A stretch of 64,000 nt of DNA, from assembly GCA_963793425.1 (NCBI GenBank), contig CAWCAG010000009.1, positions 768,001 through 832,000 on the forward strand, given 5' to 3'. Below are positions 42,987 through 59,924 of this stretch, one piece after another. Source of the stretch: an uncultured cyanobacterium. Lineage in GTDB: Bacteria; Cyanobacteriota; Cyanobacteriia; Cyanobacteriales; CAWCAG01. The position numbers were made by a program, and so were the translations under genes. The notes beneath the pieces were generated by a model. That model had not been told where the DNA came from and made no database searches. It saw only the letters and a program-made list of their open reading frames with translations. Position 1 is the first letter of the stretch, and every line of letters starts with the position of its first letter.

Positions 42987-44342
42987 ATGAAACTCGATTG
43001 TCTTCTTGAGATTGTCAACCATCAGCTAATTGAAAACCAAAATCGTCCCCTTAATTCCGCAGAAACAATTATTCTACGTGGCATTTGGCAATATAGAACC
43101 TATAATCAGATAGCGATGGAGGCAGGTTATAGTCCTGGCTATTTTACTAATGTTGTAGCCCCAGACTTGTTTAAGCAACTTTCTAAGGTTGTTGGTCAGC
43201 ATATAACCAAGAAAAACTGTCGAACTTTGCTAGAATCCTATGCTACAACCCAAGCATCTGCTCAGACAAAATCTAATCAGCAACAAGTCAAGCAAGACCA
43301 GCTACCATGCTATCCTTGTGGTTCAATTCCTCTGGAGTCTCCCTTTTACTTAGAACGTTCTTCTATTGAAAAGCAAGTTTATCAAGAAATCGAAAAACCA
43401 GGAGCGCTAATCAGGATTAAAGCACCTAGAGAAATGGGTAAAACTTCGCTACTGCTGAGGATTCTGGATCATGCTAACAGCCTGAATTACCATACTGTTA
43501 GTTTGAACTTAGAGCAGGTAGACCAAGCAATTTTAAGGGACTTGAATCAATTTATGCGGTGGCTATGTGCCAATATTACTCATCAGCTTCAGCGTAAATC
43601 AGTGCTAGATGAGTATTGGGATCAAGACTTGGGTAGTAAAGTTAGCTGTACTATCTACTTTGAAGACTATTTGCTGGAGTTAGTTGACACTCCCTTGATT
43701 TTGGCATTAGATGAGGTGAATCAAATTTTTGAGCATCCTCAAGTAGCGAAGGATTTTTTACCTTTGTTGCGTTCTTGGTACGAAGAATCTAAAAGACTAC
43801 CCATCTGGCAAAAGCTACGCCTGATTGTTGTTCACTCTACAGAAATTTATGTTCCCCTCGAACTCAACCAGTCTCCTTTCAATGTGGGGCTGCCGATTCA
43901 GTTAAATAACTTTGCCCCCGAAGAGGTAAAGAAGTTAGCTAAATGCTACGGACTCCATTGGGGAGATGGGGAAGAAGCCGAAAAATTAATGGCTATGGTG
44001 GGTGGACATCCAGCCTTGATACATTTAGCCATCTATCATCTTAGTTGCGGGGAAATGACCATAGGGCAACTGCTCAAGACTGCTACTATGGCTACAGGGA
44101 TTTATGCTAATCACTTACAACGTCATTGGGTGGCTTTGAAAAAACAGCCTGAGTTAGCACAAGCATTTGATAGGGTTCTTAATGCTACTGAACCTGTTGC
44201 TTTAGAGCCGATTTTTACTCATCAACTAGCTAGTATGGGACTAATTAAACTTAAAAATGAGGGTGCAATGTCTACGATGGGCTTTGCTTGTGTAGCTTGT
44301 GAGTTATATCAGCAGTTTTTTAGCAAAACAAGCGATCCTTAG
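42987..44342 (+). CDS. HTH (vWA-MoxR-associated N-terminal type) + AAA_35 NTPase
   Basis: N-terminal LRGIWQYRTYNQIA...GYSPGY HTH, Walker A KAPREMGKTS and Walker B LALDEV. Confidence 0.85.
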   Translation: MKLDCLLEIVNHQLIENQNRPLNSAETIILRGIWQYRTYNQIAMEAGYSPGYFTNVVAPDLFKQLSKVVGQHITKKNCRTLLESYATTQASAQTKSNQQQVKQDQLPCYPCGSIPLESPFYLERSSIEKQVYQEIEKPGALIRIKAPREMGKTSLLLRILDHANSLNYHTVSLNLEQVDQAILRDLNQFMRWLCANITHQLQRKSVLDEYWDQDLGSKVSCTIYFEDYLLELVDTPLILALDEVNQIFEHPQVAKDFLPLLRSWYEESKRLPIWQKLRLIVVHSTEIYVPLELNQSPFNVGLPIQLNNFAPEEVKKLAKCYGLHWGDGEEAEKLMAMVGGHPALIHLAIYHLSCGEMTIGQLLKTATMATGIYANHLQRHWVALKKQPELAQAFDRVLNATEPVALEPIFTHQLASMGLIKLKNEGAMSTMGFACVACELYQQFFSKTSDP

Positions 44343-44355
44343 AAAGTAAACATTT

Positions 44356-45213
44356 TTAAGAAAGCTGCCATCCTACTAATACTGCCCCTGTTACAAACAT
44401 TAGCAAACTGTATATGGCTGCCGGAATTGCCATCGTTGGATTATCAAGTAAAGTGGGCGCACTGGCAACAGCGATCGCTAATGTGCCATTTTGAATCCCC
44501 ACTTCGCAAGTGATAGCCAGGGTATTCTTTTTACCTAGCCCAGCAAAGCTAGAGAGAACAAAGCCTAAAGCCATTGTTAGTATATTGAGTGCTAGAGTAA
44601 CACCACCGACTTGCAAGAAAAAGCTAAGTACATTCGCCTGCTCTTTTAACAGTAGCCCAAAGATAATCAGTGCGAGAAAGAATAGTGAAAGCCATTTGAC
44701 GCTTTTTTCAACTTTGGCAGCAATTGCTGGTGCGTAGCGATGTAATATCATGCCTAAGCTAATGGGAATAAGAGTTATGACTGCAATTTGGATCACCGTT
44801 GGCAAAAACGGTAGCTGAAGTGCGATGCCTTCTCCCATAAAATATTGCATTGCTAGGTTAACGACTAGGGGAATGGTAAATACGGTAATGAGGCTGCTGA
44901 TTGCAGTGAGAGTAACAGAGAGAGCAACATTGCCTTGAGCTAAATAAGTAACTAGGTTGGAAGTTGGCCCCCCTGGGCAGGCAGCTAGAATCATGACACC
45001 AACAGCTAACTCTGGTGACAGGGGGAAGAGTACAGCTAATAAAAAGCCCACTAGGGGCAGCATAACTAGCTGGGCAAGCAGTCCTAAGATAACTGATTTG
45101 GGTGCGATCACAATGCGCTTGAAGTCCTCAAGCTTCAGCCCTAAGCCCATGCCTAGCATGATGATAAAGAGTGCTAAGGGGAGAAAAACTGCGGTCAAAG
45201 AGTTAGATTCCAT
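44356..45213 (-). CDS. bile acid:sodium symporter (SBF/SLC10) family
   Basis: Motifs MLGMGL, ACPGGPTSN and EVGIQN. Confidence 0.92.
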   Translation of the reverse strand: MESNSLTAVFLPLALFIIMLGMGLGLKLEDFKRIVIAPKSVILGLLAQLVMLPLVGFLLAVLFPLSPELAVGVMILAACPGGPTSNLVTYLAQGNVALSVTLTAISSLITVFTIPLVVNLAMQYFMGEGIALQLPFLPTVIQIAVITLIPISLGMILHRYAPAIAAKVEKSVKWLSLFFLALIIFGLLLKEQANVLSFFLQVGGVTLALNILTMALGFVLSSFAGLGKKNTLAITCEVGIQNGTLAIAVASAPTLLDNPTMAIPAAIYSLLMFVTGAVLVGWQLS

Positions 45214-45569
45214 AAAAGGTTGAAACGGCTAAAAGTTGCTAATCATTTTACTTTCTATTAAGCAATCAGCAAAGGACACAAGAAACAAGCTGTTAGGCAT
45301 TTAGATTTGTTATGAGGGCAAGGTAATAGGTACAAACTACAGCTTATTGAGTTTGCTCAAAAGAGATATCCTAAGAATTTTCTTGATTGAAGTCCAAAAC
45401 TAGGATAAGAACGCTCAAATAACTTGCTACTAAAGGAAATATATCTCTAGAAGGTTTTGCTAAACTCATCTAAATACTCTATAAAGCTCATAGAAAAACT
45501 AATAATCAAATATTTTGCGCTATTGAAATTGTTGGATATGTCTATTGGTTTGTGAAAATAATTTTCTAA

Positions 45570-46190
45570 TTACTTGACGGAAAATTTAACAGTAATACTA
45601 CCTTCATTATCGCCGTAGAGTTCTTCAACATCATTCATTAAAAAACGAGCAGTTTGTTTTTCTTTTAAAAGGAAAGAGTCTTGTTTTCCGTAGGCAAGAC
45701 ATTCCCTTCCTATCTTAACTACTAATGCTCCTAAAGAAAGATCCGGACATGGCATATTAGGGTTAGATTCAAACTGCTGAACACCATCTGGGGAAAGCTC
45801 ACCTTTAGCATATTCAGGAACATCAATATCTGGGTTGTTAGGAATAGCCTGCCATTTACCTGTAGCAGTGAAGCTTATAGTCACAGGCTCATCTGTATTA
45901 TTAGTATAGGATTCACCATTTGTATCACTAGCTTCAACTGTACGTTCTTCCGTTTTTGGAGAAGTTTGGATTTCTTTGTCTTCAGATATCAAATGATTAA
46001 TACCTGCTGTCCCTAAAATTGCAGCAATAATTGCAGCAACTCCTGATAAGATACCAGGCAAACTAGTCCAGAAATTAGGCTTTTGCTCCCCTTCACTCAC
46101 TATCTCCCCTCCATTTTTTTTGATATCACTAATTGTCAAACTTGCAACCTGGGCATCTGTCTCAAGTTTGATATTAACTTGGTTATACAT
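45570..46190 (-). CDS. membrane-anchored protein with a LecA/PA-IL-like lectin domain
   Basis: TM segment FWTSLPGILSGVAAII; C-terminal GALVVKIG and MNDVEELYGDNEGSITV. Confidence 0.65.
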   Translation of the reverse strand: MYNQVNIKLETDAQVASLTISDIKKNGGEIVSEGEQKPNFWTSLPGILSGVAAIIAAILGTAGINHLISEDKEIQTSPKTEERTVEASDTNGESYTNNTDEPVTISFTATGKWQAIPNNPDIDVPEYAKGELSPDGVQQFESNPNMPCPDLSLGALVVKIGRECLAYGKQDSFLLKEKQTARFLMNDVEELYGDNEGSITVKFSVK

Positions 46191-46255
46191 CTCATAATCT
46201 CATGACTTTTAACTCTAAAACTCATTAAAAAACCAATAAAAAAGTTTTGTAGCAA

Positions 46256-46310
46256 ATGAGTTTATCTATGAGTTTTATCAGTAGCTTTTTGGGAAGATAT
46301 AAATAACAAT
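46256..46310 (+). promoter_or_regulatory. direct-repeat promoter upstream of the amidase-cyclodehydratase operon
   Basis: ATGAGTTT twice at 12-bp spacing, with TAACAAT 36 bp after the start of the second repeat. Same layout as 49493-49547. Confidence 0.6.
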
Positions 46311-46338
46311 ATCAGTAAAACTAGCAAGGTTAATCATT

Positions 46339-47151
46339 ATGAAACTTGGTATTGATATAGGACATAATTGCCCTCCAGATACAGGTGCAGAGAAAATCAA
46401 AAAAGAAGATCATTTGACCAAAGATGTGGGAACTCGTTTGATGCAGAAATTGATTGCTGCTGGTCACGAAGTAGTTGATTGCACACCTAATCCGGCAGAA
46501 ATAAAAGACAGAAACAAATCTCCACGAGAGCTAGTGAATTTATCTCTGCGAAAACGAGCAGAAAAAGCTAACTACAACAAAGTTGATATCTTTGTTTCTA
46601 TACACTTTAATGCTTATACTAACGCTTCTAGCAAGCCTACAAATAAGCCAATGGGAACAGAGATATATGCAATCAGTAATGCTGCTAGAGGCATTGCTCA
46701 AAAAGTCCTGGATGAAATCCTTAAGCTAGGGTTTAAAGACCGAAAGGTTAAAAATAAAGGCTTTGCAGTTCTCACAAGGACTTCAATGCCTGCTATTTTA
46801 GTTGAGTGTTGTTTTCTTGATTCATATCCGGATATGAATCTTTTCGATGCTGAAAAAATGGCTGAGGCGATTAAGATTGGTTTAGTTGGAGAAGCTCCTG
46901 ATAGCAATACTTCTCCTCTACCAGGTAAGTTAAAAGTTTTTCAATCAGCTATTCTCAAACCTTCCACAGAACAGTCTTCAGAGCTACCTCCAGACTCATT
47001 AATAAGTATTACTTCAGGAGAATATTTGGTTTTAGATTACCGTTTAGAAGAACGGCACTACTGGGTAAAATGGCCTGATAATAGCAAGGGAAATCGTTAT
47101 GAGCATTTTATTTTTGAAGCAGATGCTGAAATTATCCCGACTGAGAATTGA
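46339..47151 (+). CDS. N-acetylmuramoyl-L-alanine amidase (Amidase_3)
   Basis: Zn-amidase motifs IDIGH, E, SIHFNA and AILVECCF. Confidence 0.9.
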   Translation: MKLGIDIGHNCPPDTGAEKIKKEDHLTKDVGTRLMQKLIAAGHEVVDCTPNPAEIKDRNKSPRELVNLSLRKRAEKANYNKVDIFVSIHFNAYTNASSKPTNKPMGTEIYAISNAARGIAQKVLDEILKLGFKDRKVKNKGFAVLTRTSMPAILVECCFLDSYPDMNLFDAEKMAEAIKIGLVGEAPDSNTSPLPGKLKVFQSAILKPSTEQSSELPPDSLISITSGEYLVLDYRLEERHYWVKWPDNSKGNRYEHFIFEADAEIIPTEN

Positions 47152-47164
47152 TCAATCCTAAGTA

Positions 47165-49462
47165 ATGCAATACAAACCCCAGTTTAATCCTTGTTACTCT
47201 ATTGAAACTATAGAACCAAATCAGGTCTTCTTCTTATCTGAAAGAGAAAAAGCTTGGTTGTGTAATCGCCTATCTTATGATTTAGCTAATTTAATCGATG
47301 GCGATCGCACTAATGACGAAATTATTGATACCCTACAACAGTTACTACTACAAGACCCAAAAACTTTACAGCAAGCCAGTACTTTCTTCCAAGAAGTTCT
47401 TAATGTGAGTCTGCAAGCTCAATCTGCCTTATTGCAAATGCAACAGCAAGGCTATCTTGTTGAAAAAGATAACTCTATTCCATCTCACTTAAGCATCTTC
47501 TGCCATCATCTCAATATTGCTCCTAACCTAGCCCAGCAACGCTTGCAAACGATTAAAGTTGCTGTGAAAACTTGCGGTTCAGTTGCGACTGAGGACTTTG
47601 TTGCTACCCTTGAGTCTTTACAAATTCAAGTAGCAGAAGAAGGTGATTTAACAGTAGTCTTAACCGATAACTATCTCAATCCTCAGCTAGATAAATTTAA
47701 CCAACAATCCCTCGAATCTAAATCTCCCTGGTTGCTGGTTAAACCAGTAGGGACAATAGTTTGGCTCGGCCCCTTATTTCACCCCAACAAAACTGGCTGT
47801 TGGCAATGCTTAGCCAAGCGTCTGCGAGATAATCGACCGATTGAAGGGTTTATAGAAAGACAAAAAGAAACTTCTTCTCCTTTAACGACTCCTTTAGGCT
47901 TCTTACCATCTACAGTGCAAACTGCATTGGGAATGGCTGCTACAGAAGTGTTCAAATGGATTATTCAAGGAGAAAATCAACAATTAGAAAATAACTTACT
48001 TACTTACGATAATATTACCCTGCAAACCCAACATCATTCTTGGGTTAAGCGTCCTCAATGTTCTAGCTGTGGAGAACAAAAAAATAGCTTACTCAAACCT
48101 ATTGTTTTACAACATCGTCAGAAAAACTTCACTGCTGACGGAGGACATCGCATCTGTTCACCCCAAGAAACTCTTAGGAAATACCAACATCATATTAGCC
48201 CCATTACTGGCATTGTACGGGAACTAAACAAGATTCCTGTCAACAGCTTAACTCACAACTACATCGCTAAACATCATTTCTTAAGTACTTTCGATAATGT
48301 AGCTAGTTTGCAGCAAAACTTGGGGGGTAGAAGTGCAGGGAAAGGTAGGACTAACTCTCAAGCAATGGCTAGCGGTTTTTGTGAAGCAATTGAACGCTAT
48401 TCTGGGGTATTTCAAGGGGATGAAGTTAGGCAAAAAGGTAGTTATCTGCAAATGGGAGACAAAGCTATACATCCCAACGCTTGTATGAACTTTAGTCAAC
48501 GGCAATATCACCAGAGAAAACAATGGAATCTTGAATGTCAAGGCTGGTTTCAAAAAGTACCTGAACCCTTTGAGGAAGATAGAGTTATTGATTGGACTCC
48601 GGTTTGGTCTTTAACTCACCAGGAATTTAAGTATTTGCCCACAGCGTACTGTTATTATGGCTATCAAACAGACTATCAAACAGACTGTTGGGCTGATTCT
48701 AATGGTTGTGCCACGGGAAATACCATTGAAGAAGCGATTCTGCAAGGATTTATGGAATTAGTGGAGCGGGATGCTGTTGCTTTGTGGTGGTATAACTGTC
48801 TGCAAAAACCCCAAGTAGATTTAGACAGTTTTGATGAGCCTTACTTTCAAAGTCTGAAGCAATATTATCAAACAATTAACCGAGAAATTTGGGTTTTAGA
48901 TATTACCAGTGATTTGCACATTCCTGTCTTTGCTGCGATTAGTCGGAAAAAGGATAGCAAGGTAGAAAATATTGTCTTGGGCTATGGCGCTCATTTTGAT
49001 GCCAAGATTGCCATTAGTCGGGCTTTGACTGAAGTTAACCAAATTTTACCTAACGTCTTATTTACCAAAGCAGATGGTAGTACGAATTATCCCCCATCGG
49101 CGGATACCTTGGCTGTGGACTGGTGGCAAACTGCCACTGTAGCCGATCAATCTTATTTAGTCCCAGATGAGCGAATTGCGGTCAAAGTTAGCAATGATTA
49201 TCCTCAAATGGCCAGTGACGATTTACTTGAAGATGTCAAGCTTTGTCAGAAAATGGTTGAGAAAAACGGTATGGAAATGCTGGTTTTAGACCAAACTCGT
49301 GCTGATATTGGTTTAAGAGTTGCTAAGGTAGTTGTTCCGGGAATGCGCCATATGTGGCAAAGGTTAGCACCCGGAAGGCTGTATGAGGTTCCGGTGAAAA
49401 TGGGTTGGTTGCTAAAACCATTAGCCCAAGAGCAACTCAATTCTTTTCCGATGTGGATGTAA
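47165..49462 (+). CDS. PatD/TruD-like fused E1-YcaO cyclodehydratase (TOMM/cyanobactin heterocyclase)
   Basis: GPLFHPNKTGCWQCL, RPQCSSC, DGGHR, SAGKG, EAIERYSG, DSNGCATG and ELVERD; C-terminus LNSFPMWM. Confidence 0.93.
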   Translation: MQYKPQFNPCYSIETIEPNQVFFLSEREKAWLCNRLSYDLANLIDGDRTNDEIIDTLQQLLLQDPKTLQQASTFFQEVLNVSLQAQSALLQMQQQGYLVEKDNSIPSHLSIFCHHLNIAPNLAQQRLQTIKVAVKTCGSVATEDFVATLESLQIQVAEEGDLTVVLTDNYLNPQLDKFNQQSLESKSPWLLVKPVGTIVWLGPLFHPNKTGCWQCLAKRLRDNRPIEGFIERQKETSSPLTTPLGFLPSTVQTALGMAATEVFKWIIQGENQQLENNLLTYDNITLQTQHHSWVKRPQCSSCGEQKNSLLKPIVLQHRQKNFTADGGHRICSPQETLRKYQHHISPITGIVRELNKIPVNSLTHNYIAKHHFLSTFDNVASLQQNLGGRSAGKGRTNSQAMASGFCEAIERYSGVFQGDEVRQKGSYLQMGDKAIHPNACMNFSQRQYHQRKQWNLECQGWFQKVPEPFEEDRVIDWTPVWSLTHQEFKYLPTAYCYYGYQTDYQTDCWADSNGCATGNTIEEAILQGFMELVERDAVALWWYNCLQKPQVDLDSFDEPYFQSLKQYYQTINREIWVLDITSDLHIPVFAAISRKKDSKVENIVLGYGAHFDAKIAISRALTEVNQILPNVLFTKADGSTNYPPSADTLAVDWWQTATVADQSYLVPDERIAVKVSNDYPQMASDDLLEDVKLCQKMVEKNGMEMLVLDQTRADIGLRVAKVVVPGMRHMWQRLAPGRLYEVPVKMGWLLKPLAQEQLNSFPMWM

Positions 49463-49492
49463 ACATCTCCTTTCTCACGAATGTTATTTTCC

Positions 49493-49547
49493 ATGAGTTT
49501 TTATATGAGTTTTATAGGTTGTTACTTATCAAACCGTGAATAACAAT
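49493..49547 (+). promoter_or_regulatory. direct-repeat promoter upstream of the PatA-like protease
   Basis: ATGAGTTT twice at 12-bp spacing, with TAACAAT 36 bp after the start of the second repeat. Confidence 0.6.
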
Positions 49548-49663
49548 ACTGACAAGATAAGCAGGATGTCTATTAAATGAAAAGCCTAGTTTTCTCTCAA
49601 CTCCTTGAATAAGTCAATTCTGCACAAACAGAAATTTAATCAGTTATCAGGAGAAGTAAGCAG

Positions 49664-51868
49664 ATGACCAGCAATCCGAGCCTAGCAACTGTTTCAGCCA
49701 GTAGTATCACTGATATTTCAGCCTTGCCTGGTCTAAAATCCCTTTGGGCTGAAACTCTAGGAGATCCTCGGATTTGCGTAGCGATTCTTGACGGCCCTGT
49801 TGACCAATCCCACCCGTGTTTAGAAAATGCTCAACTAAAAAGACTACCCAGTTTAGTATCAGACCATGCTGGTAAAGGTATTATGTCTGCTCACGGTACT
49901 CATATTACCAGTACAATTTTTGCTCAACCTAGTGGAGACGTTCGTGGTATTGCACCTGAATGTCGCGGTCTGATAATTCCTGTGTTTTCCGACAACGGAA
50001 AAGGTAAGCTTTCGCAGCTTAACCTCGCTAGAGCTATTAATCAAGCCGTCGAACAAGGCGCACAGGTGATTAATATTAGCGGCGGTCAAAAGGTAGAACA
50101 GCCTCAAGAGGCCGATCCGATGTTGGTGAAAGCAGTTGAGTTCTGTAACAACGAGGGGGTTTTGATTGTTGCTGCTGCGGGTAACGATGGATGTGAATGC
50201 CTTCATGTTCCAGCAGCTTTACCTTCAGTGTTGGCAGTGGGAGCAATGAATGCTCAAGGATTACCTTTCGATTTCAGTAATTGGGGCAAAACCTACCAAA
50301 CTCAAGGTATTCTCGCTCCTGGTGAAAATATATTAGGTGCATTACCTGACGGCGGTACTACTGTCATGAGCGGTACTAGCTTTGCTAACCCTGTCGTATC
50401 TGGTGTTGCTGCTTTATTACTCAGTATTCAGCTTTTACGTGGAGAGAGGCCAAATCCTCATGCTGTGCGAGCAGCTTTACTCGATAGTGCTTTCCCCTGT
50501 GACCAGCTAAAAGTTTCTAATTGTCATCGTTTTTTAGTAGGTAGTCTCAACATTCTTGGAGCATACAACTTAATTAACAACGGAGAAATAAGCAATATGT
50601 CTGAGTCTCAATCAGATTTGGAAACTATCCAACCCAGTCAAACTAATAATCTTAATCAAACAGAATCTGCAAATGTGATACCAGCTAATAACTCAGAATC
50701 TGTCACAGCAACATCTAGCAATACTCCAGTACCAATGCAGATTGCCAATAATGGAATGGCTGTAATGCCCAGTAACAACGGAATGATTTCTATGCCCTAT
50801 CAGGTCGTGGCTGTTCCAGCAATGGGTAATAATCAAATGGCTGTTGTACCTAGTGTAGCTGCTACATCTAACGCTGTAGTTAATTCAGGAACTTGCGGTT
50901 GTCAAAATGGTGTAGTTACTTCAAATGCCACTCCTAACGAAATAGTAGATTCTTTTGTTTATGCCATTGGATTAATTGGTTATGATTTTGGCACTGAAGC
51001 GCGTCGGGACAGCTTTAAACAGTTGATGCCAGAATATACTCCAGAAGATTCAGAGCAAGAAAACCTAGTACTTCCGGCTAATCCCTATGATGCTAGGCAG
51101 ATGGCTCGTTACTTAGAAGAAAATCGAGATGAAGCCAAATCGCTTATTTGGACATTGAACTTAGACCTAACCCCAATCTATGCAATTGAGCCTCAAGGAG
51201 CCTTTGCTTCGGATGTCTACGGGCAATTACAAGATTTTTTAGCTGGACAGGTTAAGGCTGAAGATGATGATGAATATATTGAGAGAACTTCAATTCCAGC
51301 TATTTTGACTGGTAGAACCGTAACCCTCTTTTCTGGAGAGGTTGTTCCGGTCATTCGACCGATAAATACTCGTGGGATGTATGCTTGGCAAATTAATCAG
51401 TTAATCGATAGTGTCATAGCAGTGACCCAGCAAAGGTCTGAACAGGAAGGACTCACATCTCCTAGCGACGAAGTAATTGAAGAAATCAAGTATTCGTTAA
51501 GAAGTTTTCTAGAGCGAGTATACTATGATTTACGAAATCTGGGACAAACCTCTCAAGAGCGGGCCCTGAACTTTGCGGCAACCAACATTTTTCAGTATGC
51601 AGATGCCTTGGTACAAGTTTTAAGAAATAAGAAACGTCCTAGCGAGACAGGGGAAACACTAACAGCCGTAACTATGCAACTTGACTCTTTTCAAACAGAA
51701 AGAAGTCCTTTCTGTCGTAAAGATTCTGATTGCTGGGATGTGAAGCTGAAATTCTTTGATCCAGAAAATGCTCGGCGTGCGAGAAGAGTCATTCGCTATA
51801 CCCTGGATGTGAGTGATGTCATGCCAGTGACTCTAGGTAAAGTTAGAATCTGGGACGAAGCAAGCTAA
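49664..51868 (+). CDS. PatA-type cyanobactin maturation protease (S8 domain + PatG-C-terminal-like domain)
   Basis: Catalytic triad ILDG/HGTH/GTSFA; C-domain YDFGTEARRDSF...SPFCRKDSDCWDVKLKFFDPEN. There is no macrocyclase insertion between the Asp and His motifs. Confidence 0.93.
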   Translation: MTSNPSLATVSASSITDISALPGLKSLWAETLGDPRICVAILDGPVDQSHPCLENAQLKRLPSLVSDHAGKGIMSAHGTHITSTIFAQPSGDVRGIAPECRGLIIPVFSDNGKGKLSQLNLARAINQAVEQGAQVINISGGQKVEQPQEADPMLVKAVEFCNNEGVLIVAAAGNDGCECLHVPAALPSVLAVGAMNAQGLPFDFSNWGKTYQTQGILAPGENILGALPDGGTTVMSGTSFANPVVSGVAALLLSIQLLRGERPNPHAVRAALLDSAFPCDQLKVSNCHRFLVGSLNILGAYNLINNGEISNMSESQSDLETIQPSQTNNLNQTESANVIPANNSESVTATSSNTPVPMQIANNGMAVMPSNNGMISMPYQVVAVPAMGNNQMAVVPSVAATSNAVVNSGTCGCQNGVVTSNATPNEIVDSFVYAIGLIGYDFGTEARRDSFKQLMPEYTPEDSEQENLVLPANPYDARQMARYLEENRDEAKSLIWTLNLDLTPIYAIEPQGAFASDVYGQLQDFLAGQVKAEDDDEYIERTSIPAILTGRTVTLFSGEVVPVIRPINTRGMYAWQINQLIDSVIAVTQQRSEQEGLTSPSDEVIEEIKYSLRSFLERVYYDLRNLGQTSQERALNFAATNIFQYADALVQVLRNKKRPSETGETLTAVTMQLDSFQTERSPFCRKDSDCWDVKLKFFDPENARRARRVIRYTLDVSDVMPVTLGKVRIWDEAS

Positions 51869-51897
51869 CTATTTATTCAATAACAAAAATTAGACAA

Positions 51898-52056
51898 ATG
51901 AAATACTCAAAACAATCAAAATTACCTAAGCAAGTTGCCCCCATACAGCGACTTTCTACCTCAGTTGCACCTTCTAGTAATAATGGCGTTGAAGCTAGTG
52001 GAATATTCGATTTAATACGACAATTGCCTATTATTAGGACATTTGCTCGCAAATAA
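51898..52056 (+). CDS. cyanobactin-like RiPP precursor 1 (52 aa; core GIFDLIRQLPIIRTFARK)
   Basis: Manual translation MKYSKQSKLPKQVAPIQRLSTSVAPSSNNGVEAS|GIFDLIRQLPIIRTFARK. Confidence 0.85.
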   Translation: MKYSKQSKLPKQVAPIQRLSTSVAPSSNNGVEASGIFDLIRQLPIIRTFARK

Positions 52057-52148
52057 TGATCTAGTTTTTCTATAGAGACTTTTTTAGCGATTACACAGCG
52101 AAACTTGGTTGTAATGTTGCAAAAATCCCTTAACTAAATAAGAAAGCA

Positions 52149-52247
52149 ATGAAACTGGCAATACAAGCTGGACACGTACCGCGAATTAGCGAAAACTTCC
52201 GGCATACAAACAATCACTATTCTGAAACAAAGGAGTTTCTATTATGA
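52149..52247 (+). pseudogene. possible degenerate precursor remnant (32 aa)
   Basis: MKLAIQAGHVPRIS... aligns positionally with MKMPKQAQPVKR but has no VEAS site or core. Confidence 0.35.
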
Positions 52248-52405
52248 AAATGCAGAAACATAAAATGCCCAAACAAACGGCTCCCATCGCCAGAAATCTT
52301 AATACTACTGCTCAAGCTAGCGACCAGAATAGCGGCGTTGAAGCCAGTATTCCCTGGGGTCTTCTCGCAGGAGCAATTCCAGCCATTACTAGTTTATTCA
52401 ACTAG
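52244..52405 (+). CDS. cyanobactin-like RiPP precursor 2 (53 aa; core IPWGLLAGAIPAITSLFN)
   Basis: Manual translation MKMQKHKMPKQTAPIARNLNTTAQASDQNSGVEAS|IPWGLLAGAIPAITSLFN, with an AGGAG RBS at 52231. Confidence 0.88.
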   Translation: MKMQKHKMPKQTAPIARNLNTTAQASDQNSGVEASIPWGLLAGAIPAITSLFN

Positions 52406-52566
52406 CTAATTTGTTTGGGGGTTAATTGAGGCTTTGAGTTGAATTAACTTAATTCTGATTAACTTACCTGGCAAAAATTGCTTATAAAACGGTTATTGAT
52501 CGCTGGTCTGAATAAGTTGCACTCCAGCGATCGCCTCAATTACTGAAAAAACAAGGAGTACACACT

Positions 52567-52746
52567 ATGAAAATGCCCAAACAAACGGCTCCCATTGCCA
52601 GAAATCTCAACACTACTGCTCAGGCTGCTGACCAGAATGCTGTTGAAGCTAGTGCAAATTGGGGAAAGATTGGGGGAATTGGGAGTGCTATTGGAGCTGG
52701 TATTACAGGTCTTCAAGCACTAAAAGATTGGTTCAGAGGAAATTAG
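52567..52746 (+). CDS. cyanobactin-like RiPP precursor 3 (59 aa; core ANWGKIGGIGSAIGAGITGLQALKDWFRGN)
   Basis: Manual translation MKMPKQTAPIARNLNTTAQAADQNAVEAS|ANWGK...FRGN, with an AAGGAG RBS. Confidence 0.88.
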   Translation: MKMPKQTAPIARNLNTTAQAADQNAVEASANWGKIGGIGSAIGAGITGLQALKDWFRGN

Positions 52747-52850
52747 TTAGGGATCTGAATCAATTTCCTTCAATTCTGATGTGGATCGCTGGTTTCTTTA
52801 TATTATTGCCCAGCGATCGCACTTAACTTTAGCTTAGAGAGAAATAATTT

Positions 52851-53087
52851 ATGAAAATGCCAAAACAAGCTCAACCAGTCAAAAGGCCGCAACTCATTGA
52901 ACCTTACAAAACAGTAGATGTTATTCAAGGAGAGGAGGAAAGTTTGTTGAATGTTCGCTTCGATTTGTTACATGGAGCTAACTATAACGATCCAGCGAGG
53001 TTAAGAGTTGCAGTTGACTCTTGCGGCTGTCATATATTTTCTGGAACTTCAATGTCTCAATGTCTAGCAGTTTGCGGCTTAGTATAG
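52851..53087 (+). CDS. PatB/AcyB-like protein with a Cys-rich C-terminal extension
   Basis: PatB signature PVKRP...VD...LLHGANYNDP and tail SCGCHIFSGTSMSQCLAVCGLV. Confidence 0.85.
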   Translation: MKMPKQAQPVKRPQLIEPYKTVDVIQGEEESLLNVRFDLLHGANYNDPARLRVAVDSCGCHIFSGTSMSQCLAVCGLV

Positions 53088-53140
53088 AGCCAAAAACAAC
53101 AAAAAGCTTAATCTTTTTGGGTATAAAGAAGGAGAAATAA

Positions 53141-53497
53141 ATGTCGTTGCAGTGTATACAGCAGACTATTAGGCAAGAAATAAAAACTAGAGAAGTTCAA
53201 AGAGAAAGTATAACAGAACGCATATTTAAGCTTTATCTACAAGGACTAAAAAACGGGAAAAACAAAGAAGATAAACAATATGAAACTTTGTTTAACAAAA
53301 TAGATAGTACAGCTCATTGGAAGCAACGTCTTGATAGTTCTCATAGTAAAGAAATGTGGCTTAAGAAACTTGAGAGGATAGCAGAAAAACTTGAATTTCA
53401 AATAACTAAAAAAGAGAGTAAAGCACTTGAGAAAGTAGTCTGCCAGCTTAATCACAATTGGGGTGAGCATTGGGAAAGAGGACGGATCTGGGCATAA
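53141..53497 (+). CDS. hypothetical Lys-rich helical protein in the RiPP locus
   Basis: 118-aa ORF with a strong AAGGAG RBS. Confidence 0.7.
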   Translation: MSLQCIQQTIRQEIKTREVQRESITERIFKLYLQGLKNGKNKEDKQYETLFNKIDSTAHWKQRLDSSHSKEMWLKKLERIAEKLEFQITKKESKALEKVVCQLNHNWGEHWERGRIWA

Positions 53498-53547
53498 GTC
53501 AAAGTTGAAATATTGTTCTTCAAGTGTGATTGCTCAGGACAAATTAA

Positions 53548-54261
53548 TTGCAGATTATGCTCCAAGAATATAGGATTATTGATGCAGACTCCCATGTGGT
53601 TGAACCTCTAATTATGTGGGGTGAGTATCTCGAACCAGAATTCCAAAAGTTTGCACCTTCAATAGATATGAAAATGCAAGGGGAAGAGATTGTCGAAAAG
53701 GTGTCTAAGCAAGTTAGCGCTATCGGCAATAGGCAAATGATGCAGGCTCATCCTCATGCTTATTTCCAAGGCTATAGTGTTAAGTCTCACCTGGAAGAAA
53801 TGATAAAGATGGGTGTGGATGTGGCTTTTCTTTATCCAACTTATGGGTTGTGGCTTTGGGCGATAGATTCTATGCAACCGGAAGTTGCGGGGGCTTTTAC
53901 CCGTGCCTATAACAAGTGGTTAAAGTACTTTTGCGGCCATGCTCCAGATAGGTTGCAAGGGGTAGGAGCAATCAATCTGCACGCCCCAGAAACCCTGGTA
54001 GGCCAGTTACATCAGATTGCTGATTTTGGTTGGAAAGCGGTGTTTGTACGTCCCAACCCCATCAAAGGAAGACTGTTGAGTGACTCTGCTTATGAGCCTT
54101 TTTGGACAGAATGCGAACAGTTAGGTATAGCAGTTGGCATTCACGAAGGGACTCACTCTCGTTTGCCCACTACTGGCACAGATAGGTTTAACACTCGCTT
54201 TTCGCTAATGGGGGAGCGCAACAAGGCTTTCTCATCCTGGAAAAAGAGGAGCAATGGGTAA
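53548..54261 (+). pseudogene. amidohydrolase_2 family protein, C-terminally truncated
   Basis: IIDADSHV, YPT, AYNKWL and GIHEG are present. Family-like sequence stops near 54205 and runs into unrelated sequence. Confidence 0.8.
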
Positions 54262-55895
54262 TTGAAGCGGAAGGGACGATAGATTCTGAGCAGATTACTT
54301 TAGGGCGATCGCGCCCGATCAACTCTGTAGATACTGACACCCAGATACCAATCCTACCAGTTGCCGTAGTTAACTATGTTATTCGTACTCAAGAAAACGT
54401 CGTTTTAGACAATGCTGCACAAGAAGAACAATTTAGCCGTGATCGCTACATTGTGTCAACTCAACCCAAATCGATTCTCTGTACCCCTTTGTTACATCAA
54501 GGCAAGCTAAGGGGCATCTTATACTTAGAAAACAACTTAACCACAGGGGCATTTACTAGCGATCGCATTGAAACCTTAAGAATTCTCTCTGCCCAAGCTG
54601 CTATTTCCCTGGAAAATGCCCAACTCTACGCCCAACTAGAAGATGCTAACCGCAACCTAGAACAAAGAGTAACACAGCGCACCCAAGAACTCTCCCAAAC
54701 CCTAGAAATCCTCAAAGCTACCCAAGCCGAACTGATCTTTGAAAACGAGTTACTCAGAAGTGCCGAACAACCTTCTAACTTTGACTACCAAGTGGGGGGG
54801 AGTTTGCCCATGGATGCTCCCACCTATGTGGTGCGATCAGCAGATCGTTCCCTCTACAAAGCTTTGCAGCAGGGGCAAGTTTGTTATATTCTTAATCCTC
54901 GGCAGATGGGAAAATCAAGCCTGATGGTGCGGATGATGCACCACCTGAGACATGAAGGGTTTAGCTGCGGGGCCATTGATCTTACCCGCATTGGTAGCGA
55001 AAACATTACTCCTGAGCAATGGTATAAAGGTTTGACGGTAGAATTATGGCGAAGTTTTGGCTTGTTAAGGAAGGTTAATCTGAGAAGTTGGTGGAATGAA
55101 CAAGGGGATATCTCTCCAGTGCAACGGTTAAGCCAATTTATTGAAGAGATTTTGCTGGTTGAAGTTGGTCAAAGCGATGACACTTTGCCGAAAAACCTGA
55201 TTGTTTTTATTGATGAAATTGATAGCTTTTTAAGCTTGAATTTCCCCGTAAATGACTTTTTCGCTCTCATTCGCTCCTGCTATAACCAACGCAGTATTAA
55301 CCCAGAGTATCGGCGTTTAACCTTTGCTCTTTTTGGCGTTGCTACTCCCGGAAATTTAATTACTGAGCAACAAACAACTCCCTTCAACATCGGTCAAACT
55401 ATTCAATTAGAAGGCTTCAAAGAGCATGAGGCACAACCTTTACTGCAAGGATTGGCAGAGAAAGTAACTAATCCGCAAACACTCTTGAAAGAAGTGTTAG
55501 GTTGGACAAACGGCCAGCCTTTTTTAACTCAAAAGCTTTGTAAACTAATCCGTAATGCTTCTTCTCCCATACCCATTAACCAAGAAGCGGCATGGCTTGC
55601 AAATTTGGTGCAGAAGTCGATAATAGAGAATTGGGAATCACAGGATCAACCAGAGCATTTGCAGACAATACGCGATCGCCTTCTCAAAAGTAAGCGATCA
55701 CCTCAGTTACTAGAAATATATCGACAAATTCTGCATCAGGGAGAAGTTATCGCCGTTGATTCTCCAGTAGAAAAAGAACTGCTTTTGTCAGGGTTAGTGA
55801 TCAAGCAACAGGGAGTTTTGAAGATTCATAATCAGATTTATGAATCTATCTTTAGCCGTAGTTGGCTTGAGTATCACCTTCGCTTTGATGCTTAA
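54204..55895 (+). pseudogene. GAF + AAA_35 protein, N-terminally truncated remnant of a larger multidomain gene
   Basis: The frame is open from about 54192 (GAQQGFLILEKEEQWVIEAEG... GAF) with no start codon until 54453. Walker A PRQMGKSS is present. Confidence 0.75.
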
Positions 55896-55932
55896 CTGTA
55901 GCGGTTTGCGATCATTTGTTCAATAATTCCAA

Positions 55933-56040
55933 CTCCAACTGGCAGTAGAAGTGACCTCAACCAATTGGGATGACGATTATATTGACAAACTTGATGAGTA
56001 TCAGCGTTTGGGGATTAGAGAATATTGGATTGTGGACTAT
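55933..56040 (+). pseudogene. Uma2-family endonuclease internal fragment
   Basis: Manual translation LQLAVEVTSTNWDDDYIDKLDEYQRLGIREYWIVDY. Confidence 0.75.
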
Positions 56041-56043
56041 TCA

Positions 56044-57152
56044 TTAAACATTGATTATTTGCAGATTTTGCTTAATACTCATTCCTCTATCCTGCAAAGT
56101 TTCGACAAATAAATCTGTTCTAAAGCTTGTTCTACGGACCAAATACCAGGTTTTTTTAGTCTTCCTTTTAGCAATGATTCTACTACACTTCCTGTACCCA
56201 TACCTGCGACCACAGCAGTATTTTCGTGGGTGAAAGCAGCATGACACTTTGCCCTTTTGCCATCCTTTTCTCCCTGTATTTCCGAACTTATAGCTACCCC
56301 AACACCACTGAAGCGATCAGTCACTTTTGTCATGGCATAACTGATGCGGGAGAAAAACTCGATGCCTTGTGAACTTTCAATCCAAGCAGAGGGAAATATA
56401 TGGGCAGTTATCCAAGTTAGATGATTATACAAATCGGGAACGGAACCGAATTTAGTAATAATATTTTTAGCAGAAAAAGACTCAGCAAAAGTGTAGGTTT
56501 CTGGCATATCGAACCAATAAACTCCTATCTTGCCATACTTAGGAAACTCAATAACTTCGCGATCACTATAGGGTGAAACTTTCTGCCACTGCCCATTTAA
56601 CCAAGCATCAAAAGCAGCCCTTAAACCTAAAAAAGTTGTCCGCATTACCGTCATTCCTGCACCTCCAGAACCAGCCACAACATAACTTAAATGAATAGTT
56701 TCTATTGTGTCTAATTGCTCTACTCCTTGGCGTACCATACTATTAGAAATACCAGGAAAAATCCCAGTATTAAGTACAGCAGTAATGCCTGCATTGCCAG
56801 CTTCTTGGCGATATTTAATTACTTTTTGCAAAAATGAGCGATGATCACTAACATCAACATAATCAACTTGTTGTTCAATGCAAGTTTTTAAAACTCTACC
56901 ATCACGATAATGAAAAGGTCCGGCACAATGAACTACTGCATTAGCCCTTGCGATCGCAGCTTTTAATTGATCTTGATTATCTAAGTCTAATTGCAGAGGT
57001 TTCAGTCTTTCATTGCCAAGAGTTTGCGTGGTAACTGTTCTTCCTGTTACCGTAATTTCTGCATCGGTATATTGCAACAAATCCTTAGTTACACTACTAC
57101 CAATCCTCCCTAATCCTCCTAAAATTAGTACGCGCTGTTTCATCCTGATCAA
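56044..57152 (-). CDS. saccharopine dehydrogenase-like oxidoreductase with apparent frameshift near the 3' end
   Basis: GGLGRIG, HCAGPF and TGIFPG. The natural-looking C-terminus TDLFVETLQDRG is in another frame. Confidence 0.82.
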
Positions 57153-57824: not shown

Positions 57825-59924
57825 ATGGAATCAAGTGAGAACCAACCTAGAGCATTGAATTGGCGCGGAGAAAGTGCCTTAGCTGCCATTGTTTTTACAG
57901 ATGTTGAGTCTTTTACTCCGATTATGGCAGCGGATGAAAACCACGCTTTGGCACTGATACAGCGGGATTTTCAATTAATGGCTCGCTTTTGCGAACAGAA
58001 GGAGGGACAGGTACTCAAATACTTGGGAGATGGTATGTTGATGTACTTTATCAGCGCCGAAAAAGCTGTCGATTGTGCCATTGAAATCCAAAAAGAGTTA
58101 GTAACTACCGCCACTACCCTAGAAAAGAAAGATATTTTGACCCATCGCATCGGCATACATTTAGGAGATGTATTTTTTAATGGTCAAGATGTCATGGGTA
58201 AAGGGGTTAATATGGCCTCTCGGTTGGAAGGACAATCTCAACCTGGGGGAATTTGTATTTCCCACACAGTTTATGAAGTAGTTAAAAATTGCCTCCAAGC
58301 CCCCATTACCTATGCGGGGATGAGGAAATTAAAAGGTATCCGTGAACCCGCCCCTATTTATCTTATTCCACCGCCACGCCAAAAAGTAGAAACAAAAACC
58401 AGGGTTTTTATCAGCTATCGTAACCAAGAACCGGATTTAAGCCTTGCTCAGACGTTTTACCATACTCTAATTAAAGCTGATTATGAAGCTTTTATGGCAG
58501 GGGAAAGTATTCGTTTAGGGGAAAGGTGGGCTGAAAGAATTGAAGACGAATTAAAATGTTGTGATTATTTACTAATACTTCTTTCTGAACAATCTGCTGC
58601 CAGCGAGATGGTGACAGAAGAAGTTCGCCGGGCGAAGGAATTACATAGCCTTAATTCTGATGGGAAACCCTATATCTTACCCATTAGAGTTAAATTTCCC
58701 ATGACTTCCCCTTTGAATTACAACCTTAAAGGTTATTTAGATCGGATTCAACAAAGGGAGTGGAATTCAGAGGAAGATACTCCTCGGTTAGTACAGGAAG
58801 TTTTTGATATAATTCATTCAGGCAAACCCTTAGAACAACCAGAGGAAAATACTTCAGAAGCTTATGCAACTAATTGGGAAAATCCTGATCTTCCTCCTTT
58901 ACCCATAGCTATCCCAGAATTACCTGATGGGCAGGTGGATGTAGCTTCTGTATTTTATGTTGAACGCCCCCCTATTGAAGATCGGGCCATAGAAACAGTG
59001 ATTCAAGCTGGTTCTTTAATTAGGATCAAAGCCCCCAGGCAAATGGGCAAAACTTCCTTAATGGCGAGAATCTTACACCATGCCAAGGAACAAGGTTATT
59101 GTGCTGTCCCCCTAAGCTTTCAGCTAGCTGATGGCAAGATTTTTCAAGATTTAGACCGTTTTTTGCGTTGGTTTTGCGCCAGTGTCGGTAGGAGGCTACG
59201 CTTACCCAATCAGCTTAATGATTATTGGGATGAAATTTTTGGTAGTAAGGATAACTGCACCGCTTATTTTGAAGAATATCTCCTAGAAAATCTGGAAGCG
59301 CCTCTGGTTTTGGGTTTGGATGAGGTAGATTGTATTTTTAGATATCCAGAAATTGCCACAGACTTTTTTGGCTTATTGCGGGCTTGGCATGAAGAAGCGA
59401 AAAATCGTGATATCTGGAAAAAGTTACGCCTAGTGGTGGTACATTCGACGGAAGTTTATGTACCAATGGATGTCAACCAATCTCCTTTTAATGTTGGGCT
59501 ACCCTTAGAGTTACCAGAATTTACCCCAGAACAAGTTTGTGAACTATCTCGTTTACACGGTTTAGATTGGCAAAAGTCCCACATTTTGCAACTGATGAAC
59601 TTAGTGGGGGGACATCCTTATTTAGTTCGTTTGGCACTCTATTATATTGCTAGGCAAGATATTACTTTAGAAAAGTTAATCCAAGTTGCTCCTACAGAAG
59701 GAGGGTTATACAACAATCACTTGCGTCGCCATTTATGGAACTTACAACAACACCCAGAATTGGCTGGAGCAATGCAAGAGGTAGTAGAAGCGGGTACAGA
59801 ATCTCTACGTTTAGGTTCCAAGTTAGCTTTCAAATTACATAGTATGGGCTTGGTTAGTTTCCGAGCTAATGAAGTTAAACCTAGGTGTAATTTGTATCAA
59901 CAGTATTTTCAAGAAAGATTATAG
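57825..59924 (+). CDS. class III adenylate/guanylate cyclase-TIR-AAA_35 fusion protein
   Basis: Cyclase motifs VFTDV, KYLGDG, RIGIHLGDV and VNMASRLE; TIR VFISY...SEMVTEEV; NTPase KAPRQMGKTS and LDEVD. Confidence 0.9.
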   Translation: MESSENQPRALNWRGESALAAIVFTDVESFTPIMAADENHALALIQRDFQLMARFCEQKEGQVLKYLGDGMLMYFISAEKAVDCAIEIQKELVTTATTLEKKDILTHRIGIHLGDVFFNGQDVMGKGVNMASRLEGQSQPGGICISHTVYEVVKNCLQAPITYAGMRKLKGIREPAPIYLIPPPRQKVETKTRVFISYRNQEPDLSLAQTFYHTLIKADYEAFMAGESIRLGERWAERIEDELKCCDYLLILLSEQSAASEMVTEEVRRAKELHSLNSDGKPYILPIRVKFPMTSPLNYNLKGYLDRIQQREWNSEEDTPRLVQEVFDIIHSGKPLEQPEENTSEAYATNWENPDLPPLPIAIPELPDGQVDVASVFYVERPPIEDRAIETVIQAGSLIRIKAPRQMGKTSLMARILHHAKEQGYCAVPLSFQLADGKIFQDLDRFLRWFCASVGRRLRLPNQLNDYWDEIFGSKDNCTAYFEEYLLENLEAPLVLGLDEVDCIFRYPEIATDFFGLLRAWHEEAKNRDIWKKLRLVVVHSTEVYVPMDVNQSPFNVGLPLELPEFTPEQVCELSRLHGLDWQKSHILQLMNLVGGHPYLVRLALYYIARQDITLEKLIQVAPTEGGLYNNHLRRHLWNLQQHPELAGAMQEVVEAGTESLRLGSKLAFKLHSMGLVSFRANEVKPRCNLYQQYFQERL

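Follow-up and report, generated by a model that had tools for sequence, protein, structure and literature searches.

Do eight neighbouring genes that look like a biosynthetic cluster really constitute one pathway? This question is raised by a stretch of 64,000 nucleotides from the genome of an uncultured cyanobacterium of the order Cyanobacteriales (the whole of this stretch is referred to as the window), in which eight open reading frames (ORFs) follow each other on the + strand between positions 46339 and 53497. They encode an amidase, a PatD-like YcaO cyclodehydratase, a PatA-type protease, three small precursors (E1-E3, where E denotes a precursor gene), a PatB-family protein and a protein of 118 residues. 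A preliminary description had taken all eight as one cyanobactin-like system that makes linear, bacteriocin-like peptides. The coordinates and the families named in it were recovered here for all eight ORFs; the unity of the system was not. Judged from the sequences, the apparent cluster is composed of three unrelated pieces: a PatA-only cassette, an orphan YcaO gene and an amidase gene. We consider it fairly probable that the cassette is self-contained, that it makes linear unmodified peptides and that it was inserted beside the orphan YcaO gene of another module.

The cassette (49664-53497) comprises the genes of the PatA-type protease, the three precursors, PatB and a protein with a PatC-like tail, and all six ORFs are intact. 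The protease (49664-51868, + strand) consists of an S8 subtilase domain, a low-complexity linker and the Pfam domains PatG_D and PatG_C. It scores 781.7 bits against TIGR03895, the model of the PatA/PatG family (cut-off 421). Its protease domain matches the solved structures of PatA-type N-terminal proteases with 374 and 340 bits and that of the PatG macrocyclase with 194 bits, and its catalytic Asp, His and Ser blocks align with the PatA structures. In a quick maximum-likelihood tree of 30 PatA and PatG proteins the window protease falls in a clade of ten rows with nine PatA-only proteases, supported by a value of 99 in the Shimodaira-Hasegawa-like approximate likelihood ratio test (SH-aLRT). 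All 20 PatA-only rows, including those associated with Cys-rich peptides, group together (SH-aLRT 97) and are separate from the PatA proteins of clusters in which D and G occur as well.

When one genome per species was scanned for relatives of this protease, 14 loci were obtained (related loci carry the prefix L; G415 and G431 denote a genome of the same genus and one of the same family, respectively). In the nine closest loci PatA is 58-61% identical to that of the window and the gene order is always the same: PatA, an E1-type gene directly after it, PatB and further precursors. Neither a PatD homologue nor a second protease was found in any of these nine cassettes, for which the upstream DNA was covered over 8 kb in seven cases and over 1-3.4 kb in two. 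A PatB homologue is present in 13 of the 14 related loci. The design of the cassette is found again in 13 loci besides the window, ten of which contain a gene for an S-adenosylmethionine (SAM) methyltransferase of the LCM/TIGR00027 type; these ten include one metagenome-assembled genome of the Planctomycetota and one of the Myxococcota. The window shares with this family the PatA clade, the E1-type gene after PatA, the presence of PatB, the GRIWA tail of the last protein and the Cys-free cores that continue to the stop codon.

In a sample of 401 cyanobacterial genomes, with the three best candidates of each genome scored, 34 have a PatA-family member above the cut-off and 12 of these 34 show one only. 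Inspection of ten single-protease loci assigned three to the present family (one of them duplicating L005), two to Cys-rich precursors and four to PatG-like proteins, and left one unassigned. PatA-only proteases beside Cys-rich precursors with an LP.Q..P(V/I).R leader occur in L051-L053, L087 and L088.

The precursors themselves point in the same direction. E1 (52 residues, 51898-52056), E2 (53 residues, 52244-52405) and E3 (59 residues, 52567-52746), all on the + strand, share a leader of the form K-x-P-K-Q-x-A-P-I-x-R, which is followed by the site GVEAS in E1 and E2 and AVEAS in E3. The predicted cores behind it (18 residues in E1, a hydrophobic stretch of 18 residues in E2 and a Gly-rich one of 30 residues in E3) reach the stop codon, and we can confirm that none of the three has a follower. 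An alignment of 25 ORFs, taken from 11 related loci as well as from the window, revealed five invariant positions, P10, Q12, P15, R18 and S34, the last being the serine before the predicted cut. A search with the profile of the family in a database of 5.8 billion proteins (threshold E<=0.001) gave 228 matches from many cyanobacterial genera. Considering the invariant leader residues together with this number of matches, the resemblance between the precursors goes beyond chance. Among the best 120 of the 228 all named members are annotated as "hypothetical protein", and in 118 of these 120 the leader and the site were recognized with a simple pattern, the cores again running to the stop. The only curated precursor model that is matched by E1-E3 is TIGR04446, for the precursors of D-less cyanobactins, at about 20 bits, which is below its cut-off of 35. 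The leaders of E1-E3 lack the LSEEEL-type segment that is present in a D-dependent precursor.

The genes of E2 and E3 are preceded by AAGGAG ribosome-binding sites, and over 69 nt of leader DNA the two are 90% identical (repeat D1), next to cores that differ. Such near-identical leaders beside divergent cores form the pattern that is expected under selection. For the family at large, 117 cores were compared, i.e. the 118 with leader and site minus one double-length member. Their median length is 22 residues, a Cys is found in one of the 117 (E1-E3 have none), and the net charge is mostly between -1 and +1. The helical hydrophobic moment, calculated over the first 18 residues at most, exceeds that of shuffled sequences (p<0.05) in 74% of them, with a mean z of 2.1. 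As a family, the cores would thus form short amphipathic helices, and our best guess, derived from this amphipathicity, is that the peptides are membrane- or surface-active and serve in antagonism or signalling.

The subject genome comprises 5.28 Mb and is 98.6% complete, and the absences that are called genome-wide refer to all of it. It holds a single TIGR03895 protein above the cut-off, the remaining matches being bare subtilase domains of 84, 55 and 22 bits, and the search with this model revealed no PatG-type C-terminal protease/macrocyclase. The absence of patG that had been noted for the window therefore extends to the whole genome. The same is true for patF and an oxidase, as neither a LynF/TruF prenyltransferase nor a SagB-type dehydrogenase (azoline oxidase) was found genome-wide. 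In addition, a homologue of the LCM-type methyltransferase of the cassette family was not detected genome-wide (tblastn, E<=1e-5), so that no enzyme was found in the genome to cyclise, prenylate, oxidise or C-methylate the peptides. Since PatG, the prenyltransferase and the azoline oxidase are lacking genome-wide, three unmodified linear peptides are the most likely products. More specifically, PatA would bind the conserved leader and would cut after the serine of (G/A)VEAS, by which the last 18, 18 and 30 residues would be freed as linear peptides, presumably unmodified and with free ends. PatB and the PatC-tailed protein would probably assist in leader handling or regulate it. The central idea of the preliminary description, that a PatA machinery releases linear peptides, is thereby retained, in agreement with a PatA-type protease, the genome-wide absence of PatG and precursors without a C-terminal recognition sequence.

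The PatB-family protein (78 residues, 52851-53087, + strand; TIGR04220, 79.7 bits, cut-off 55) has a Cys-rich C-terminus, with four Cys in the tail, and an N-terminus that resembles the precursor leader. In fact, the first 19 nt of its gene are 95% identical to the start of E3 (repeat D2). The PatB proteins of the window (52851-52900), of L005-L018 and of L091 begin with M-K/R-x-P-x-x-x-x-P-V-x-R, like the precursor leaders, and PatB may imitate the leaders and bind to their partner. The gene after PatB (53141-53497, + strand) encodes the Lys/Glu-rich protein of 118 residues, which ends in ERGRIWA. In eight of the nine close loci the corresponding protein has a variable Lys/Glu-rich body and ends in G(R/I)IW(A/S). 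True PatC proteins (TIGR04447, 66-69 bits) end in RRGRIW(A/S), and so does the RefSeq-annotated PatC of Gloeothece PCC 7822. The 118-residue protein has no match to TIGR04447 even at E<=10, and no protein in the genome exceeds the cut-off of this model. Nevertheless, its gene occupies the place of patC behind PatB, and since true PatC proteins have a C-terminal tail that corresponds to ERGRIWA, the cassette probably includes a PatC-like partner. The earlier statement that patC is missing thus holds for a canonical PatC and has to be amended for the last gene, which carries the PatC tail. Because PatB and the PatC-tailed protein are conserved in cassettes without D and G, their role does not appear to be tied to heterocycles or macrocyclisation.

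How, then, did a cyclodehydratase come to lie next to the cassette? The PatD-like fused E1/YcaO protein (47165-49462, + strand) is intact, scores 272.6 bits against TIGR03604 (cut-off 219) and 180.8 bits against TIGR03882, and has MusD (703 bits), LynD (675) and TruD (670) as its best solved relatives. YcaO matches at E<=1e-50 occur in 42 of the 401 genomes, and the closest homologues are 63-81% identical. Among the five genomes in which these closest homologues occur, two lack a TIGR03895 protein above the cut-off. The homologues belong to a module of a different composition: YcaO, an Amidohydro_2 protein of 361 residues, a protein that we call F4 and a giant kinase/STAND protein of about 1930 residues (Pkinase-AAA_16-TPR-GAF-AAA_35). 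The Amidohydro_2 gene adjoins YcaO in 11 of 12 close loci and F4 is found in nine of the 12. PatA, precursors, PatB and the amidase were found in none of these 12 loci. It is this distribution, together with the lack of PatD in the nine closest cassettes and the position of the cassette in the spacer between the YcaO and amidohydrolase genes, that speaks against the eight genes being one system. With the genes assigned to separate modules, the idea of a cyclodehydratase-modified product (-18 Da) is left with adjacency as its sole basis.

The native substrate of the YcaO protein may be F4. The protein has 315-397 residues and no Pfam or NCBIfam match (L039, L041-L045, L047, L049 and L050), and its gene follows that of the amidohydrolase and always precedes that of the giant kinase/STAND protein. 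All ten F4 proteins end in PYIP(L/F)(S/T) and then one or two S, T or C residues, a tail that fits a candidate protein-sized substrate of YcaO. Elsewhere in the genome of the window neither F4 nor a second copy of the amidohydrolase was found. When the surroundings of the YcaO genes of the relatives were searched for a small conserved precursor, only antisense-looking clusters of ORFs inside the giant gene were returned, and no small ORF of the LSEEEL type was found in the genome of the window. A Nif11-leader protein was considered as another substrate for YcaO and rejected, as the only match in the genome has 69 residues and no core rich in Cys, Ser or Thr. The search for an NHLP protein gave no match either, although its control likewise stayed without one. 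The YcaO gene of the same-genus genome G415 (L079, 8513-10793) is split into frames of 146 and 623 residues. Its product is only 59% identical to that of the window over residues 153-765, whereas that of a genome of another family reaches 81%, which suggests horizontal movement of the YcaO module.

A comparison with the closest relatives localizes the insertion precisely. By blastn, 47164-49511 is collinear with the YcaO gene of L039 (81% identity) and 53540-54201 with the first 660 nt of the amidohydrolase gene of L039 (82%). The two flanks are 81-82% identical to the YcaO and amidohydrolase genes of L039 and 72-73% identical to those of L041, in which the spacer between the two genes measures 47 nt. 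The segment in between, 49512-53539, thus occupies the relatives' YcaO-amidohydrolase spacer, and it has no match in G415 or G431. In G415 the amidohydrolase gene follows YcaO directly, without a cassette; in G431 the spacer contains two unrelated ORFs, and in other relatives it contains a PIN/DUF2281 pair or a Uma2 nuclease gene. The cassette would therefore have been inserted into the spacer between the PatD-like YcaO gene and the gene of its amidohydrolase partner.

Downstream of the insertion the YcaO module has been damaged. The Amidohydro_2 gene (53548-54261, + strand) is truncated to 237 residues, compared to 361 in the relatives, and its homology stops at 54201. From 54207 on, the blastn match to L039 resumes after a gap of 5.8 kb, at the GAF/AAA_35 end of the giant gene. 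What follows (54207-55895, + strand) is a 3' remnant of this gene of about 1930 codons that retains the end of the GAF domain and AAA_35; the remnant ORF, 54453-55895, begins at GAF profile position 86. A deletion of about 5.8 kb, with its junction at about 54201/54207, has cost the module the 3' end of the amidohydrolase gene, the whole of F4 and some 4 kb of the kinase gene. In the window only YcaO and an upstream AAA_35 gene (42987-44342) survive whole from this module; the latter matches the N-terminal domains of the AAA_35 genes that adjoin YcaO modules and not those of cassette-type STAND genes. With its partners lost, the YcaO is an orphan that probably does not modify E1-E3.

A repeat, ATGAGTTT-NNNN-ATGAGTTTTAT, lies upstream of the amidase gene (46256-46278, + strand), and a second copy (49493-49515) lies just past the stop codon of YcaO. 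Since ATGAGTTT repeats are found on both sides of YcaO in the closest relative as well (L039, 11606-11625 and about 8870-8915), they belong to the YcaO module, of which they look like an operator-type element. A further copy with one mismatch is found on contig C6.

Several observations weigh against a self-contained cassette with unmodified products, and some of these would fit a recruited YcaO. The YcaO gene is located 200 nt upstream of that of PatA on the same strand, and it is intact without signs of decay, with five private changes at 278 otherwise invariant sites (0-17 in the relatives). Upstream of PatA there is a ATGAGTTT repeat similar to that upstream of the amidase-YcaO unit, and the two may possibly be co-regulated. 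Moreover, each of the cores of E1-E3 has one or two Ser/Thr residues, and MusD, the best solved match of the YcaO protein, acts on Ser/Thr. On this account the YcaO would have been recruited to convert the Ser/Thr of E1-E3, or the four Cys of the PatB tail, into azolines, so that the products would be linear and contain heterocycles. Such a recruitment would also provide the other explanation that the intactness of the gene requires now that F4, its candidate native substrate, is gone, although the deletion may simply be recent. We regard this scenario as unlikely. PatD is found in none of the nine close cassettes and the cassette in none of the 12 close YcaO loci, the leaders are of the D-less type without an LSEEEL-like segment, the ATGAGTTT repeats flank YcaO in a relative without a cassette, and the Cys-rich tail of PatB occurs equally in cassettes that lack D. 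The lack of co-occurrence, the D-less leaders, the absence of Cys and the availability of F4 as a candidate substrate in the relatives thus argue, if indirectly, that YcaO does not act on E1-E3.

The cassette could also be decaying. It is atypical in that it has neither the methyltransferase that is seen in ten of the 13 other loci nor a STAND gene divergent from PatA, its gene order differs from that of the family, and the terminal branch of its PatA (0.43) is the longest of the clade. One might therefore see in it a stripped copy that makes nothing useful, in a variable spot of an eroding locus, considering that the surrounding module has suffered the 5.8 kb deletion and that the same spacer holds assorted insertions in the relatives, such as the PIN/DUF2281 pair and the Uma2 nuclease gene. 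However, the six ORFs are intact, the catalytic blocks of the protease align with the PatA structures, E2 and E3 have good ribosome-binding sites and 90% identical leaders beside divergent cores, and L017 and L018 likewise lack the methyltransferase. We judge decay to be as improbable as the recruitment of YcaO.

The properties of the cores in the window form a further point against the preferred reading, as their own amphipathicity is weak. The core of E1 has a charge of +3 and a whole-peptide shuffle p of 0.29, that of E2 is neutral with a p of 0.05, and that of E3 has a charge of +2 and a p of 0.55, its best segment of 11 residues reaching 0.015. The predicted neutral monoisotopic masses of the linear cores are 2156.295 (E1), 1853.045 (E2) and 3027.604 (E3). 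The characterization of the peptides as membrane-active in the preliminary description receives weak support from these three cores, amphipathicity being strong in the family at large. That the peptides act as signals, inside the cell or after secretion, or as effectors in a cell suicide or defence response controlled by a STAND NTPase, instead of antagonistic toxins, is the least probable of the alternatives: the STAND NTPase gene divergent from PatA in six of 11 related loci, the patatins (about 180 bits) of the type found in cyclic oligonucleotide-based antiphage signalling systems (CBASS) beside two PatA-only loci, the Tle1-like lipase in L005, the net charge of mostly -1 to +1 in the family, unlike that of classical cationic antimicrobial peptides, and the lack of a transporter among 38 proteins scanned from five related loci would fit it, but the STAND neighbours match no PADLOC model and the cassette in the window has no such partner, the nearby AAA_35 protein being of the type of the YcaO module. 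The reading that we prefer remains that of a self-contained cassette with linear unmodified products.

The third piece of the apparent cluster, the N-acetylmuramoyl-L-alanine amidase (46339-47151, + strand; Amidase_3, PF01520, 99.3 bits), was found in none of the 12 YcaO loci and none of the 14 PatA loci. Full-length orthologues with 50-63% identity (tblastn) are present in 11 other genomes of the order, where they adjoin genes for a glucosaminidase, a CHAP/SH3 protein, GDSL lipases or an M8 peptidase, and never a YcaO. With its orthologues located elsewhere and beside other lytic enzymes, the amidase is on comparative grounds a neighbour and a conserved partner of neither module, and its earlier inclusion in the system is not maintained. 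Divergent from it, on the - strand, lies the gene of a 206-residue protein (45570-46190) with a predicted membrane helix and a weak match to a PA-IL-like lectin (18.7 bits, below cut-off). Further downstream, at 57825-59924, a protein of 699 residues combines an adenylate/guanylate cyclase domain, a TIR domain and AAA_35, and weakly matches Pycsar cyclase and TIR defence models. No Rfam family was matched at E<=0.1 in window positions 44000-57000, nor in L041 or L042. The scans for promoters (11 sites, against 17.5 in shuffled sequences) and for terminators (three sites, against 5.7) both returned fewer sites than expected from shuffling.

Some features of the wider neighbourhoods are worth recording. 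The STAND proteins that are encoded divergently from PatA (L005, L006, L007, L008, L010 and L017) are of the NB-ARC or AAA_35 type and share about 80 N-terminal residues without a Pfam match (54% identity between L005 and L017). The patatin phospholipases of the CBASS-effector type are located at 14927-16078 in L017 and at 10878-12050 in L051, and the Tle1-like lipase, together with a gene for a chagasin-type inhibitor, at 13386-14480 in L005. In the window (44356-45213) as in L090 (12143-13021), on the plasmid of Gloeocapsa PCC 7428, a gene of the bile acid:sodium symporter family is found at a distance of no more than 5 kb from the PatA-only protease; the shared neighbourhood may be a coincidence.

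The PatA-only cassettes seem to constitute a widespread and undescribed family. We found no description of PatA-only linear-peptide cassettes in the searchable literature, in which key papers were beyond reach, so that an earlier description is possible. The suggestion that the genotype IV of Donia and Schmidt stands for PatA-only clusters proved wrong, as PMC3877893 identifies genotype IV with the thc pathway. Tentatively, and with a degree of confidence that falls somewhat short of even, we propose that the family, which extends over many cyanobacteria and into two or more further phyla, represents a separate class of ribosomal peptides. Its precursors would be turned into Cys-free amphipathic linear peptides of 10-30 residues by a PatA-type protease together with PatB, a PatC-tailed protein and, in most cases, a carboxyl methyltransferase. 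Such a class would be a cyanobacterial counterpart of the unmodified bacteriocins or of modulin-like peptides, in which PatB and PatC serve leader handling and not the chemistry of the macrocycle. The cassettes would then offer a simpler setting for the study of these two proteins, and they would explain the presence of a single protease in about one third (12/34) of the PatA-positive genomes in our cyanobacterial sample. The scope of the cyanobactin machinery would be widened from small cyclic or heavily modified peptides to plain ones of 10-30 residues, and a rule-based cluster caller that assigns such loci to the cyanobactins would arrive at a wrong prediction of their chemistry. More generally, the locus illustrates how unrelated modules can be merged into one apparent cluster by adjacency. 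The claim of linear peptides is directly testable by means of the predicted peptide masses.

A comparison with known systems places the YcaO module and the cassette in different surroundings. The former resembles the kinase-linked YcaO/NHLP-type azole systems, in which a fused E1/YcaO likewise occurs near an amidohydrolase, an AAA-like NTPase and a giant kinase, but its candidate substrate is F4 and not an NHLP protein. It has been reported that the D proteins of cyanobactins group with those of protease-less NHLP/Nif11 systems (PMC4603692).

The cassette shares with the canonical cyanobactins (pat, tru, acy, pag and pir) a PatA-family protease that carries the PatG_D and PatG_C domains, as well as PatB, a PatC-like tail and a leader with an N-terminal site of the G(V/L)E(A/P)S type, the leader being closest to those of the D-less acy and pir. 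The minimal set of cyanobactin genes has been given in PMC3877893 as A, G and E together with B and C. In contrast to the canonical systems, the window has no PatG genome-wide, no C-terminal recognition sequence, no prenyltransferase or oxidase, and a single core of 18-30 residues per precursor that runs to the stop.

The linear cyanobactins (aeruginosamides, viridisamide and muscorides) are comparable in that a cyanobactin-type machinery makes linear products, and the methyltransferase of the relatives of the cassette may parallel their C-terminal methylation. However, the known clusters of linear cyanobactins keep a G-type protease. The aeruginosamide type is defined by a core of 3-5 residues, N-prenylation and a C-terminal methyl ester on a thiazole, none of which applies to the window, where the cores have 18-30 residues and no Cys, and a prenyltransferase, G and methyltransferase are absent. 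The known linear cyanobactins have 3-5 residues and are prenylated and methylated (PMC4663559), and the G protease removes the C-terminal sequence for cyclic and linear cyanobactins alike (PMC12639078).

By analogy, the unmodified class II bacteriocins also combine a conserved leader with a variable core, a single cut, several peptides per locus and cores that are GxxxG-rich or amphipathic. Unlike these, the window has a cytoplasmic subtilisin of the PatA family where the bacteriocins have an ABC exporter with a fused C39 peptidase. It contains no recognisable gene for an exporter or for immunity, and there is no sequence relationship. A further comparable design is that of the PatA-only modules with Cys-rich cores, which have a lone PatA-type protease, the same leader and cores that run to the stop. 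Whereas those cores are presumably disulfide-bonded, the cores of the window subfamily are amphipathic and Cys-free (Cys in 1/117), and the subfamily travels with PatB, a PatC-tailed protein and usually a methyltransferase of the carboxyl type. The subfamily of the window is the Cys-free sister of these Cys-rich PatA-only modules.

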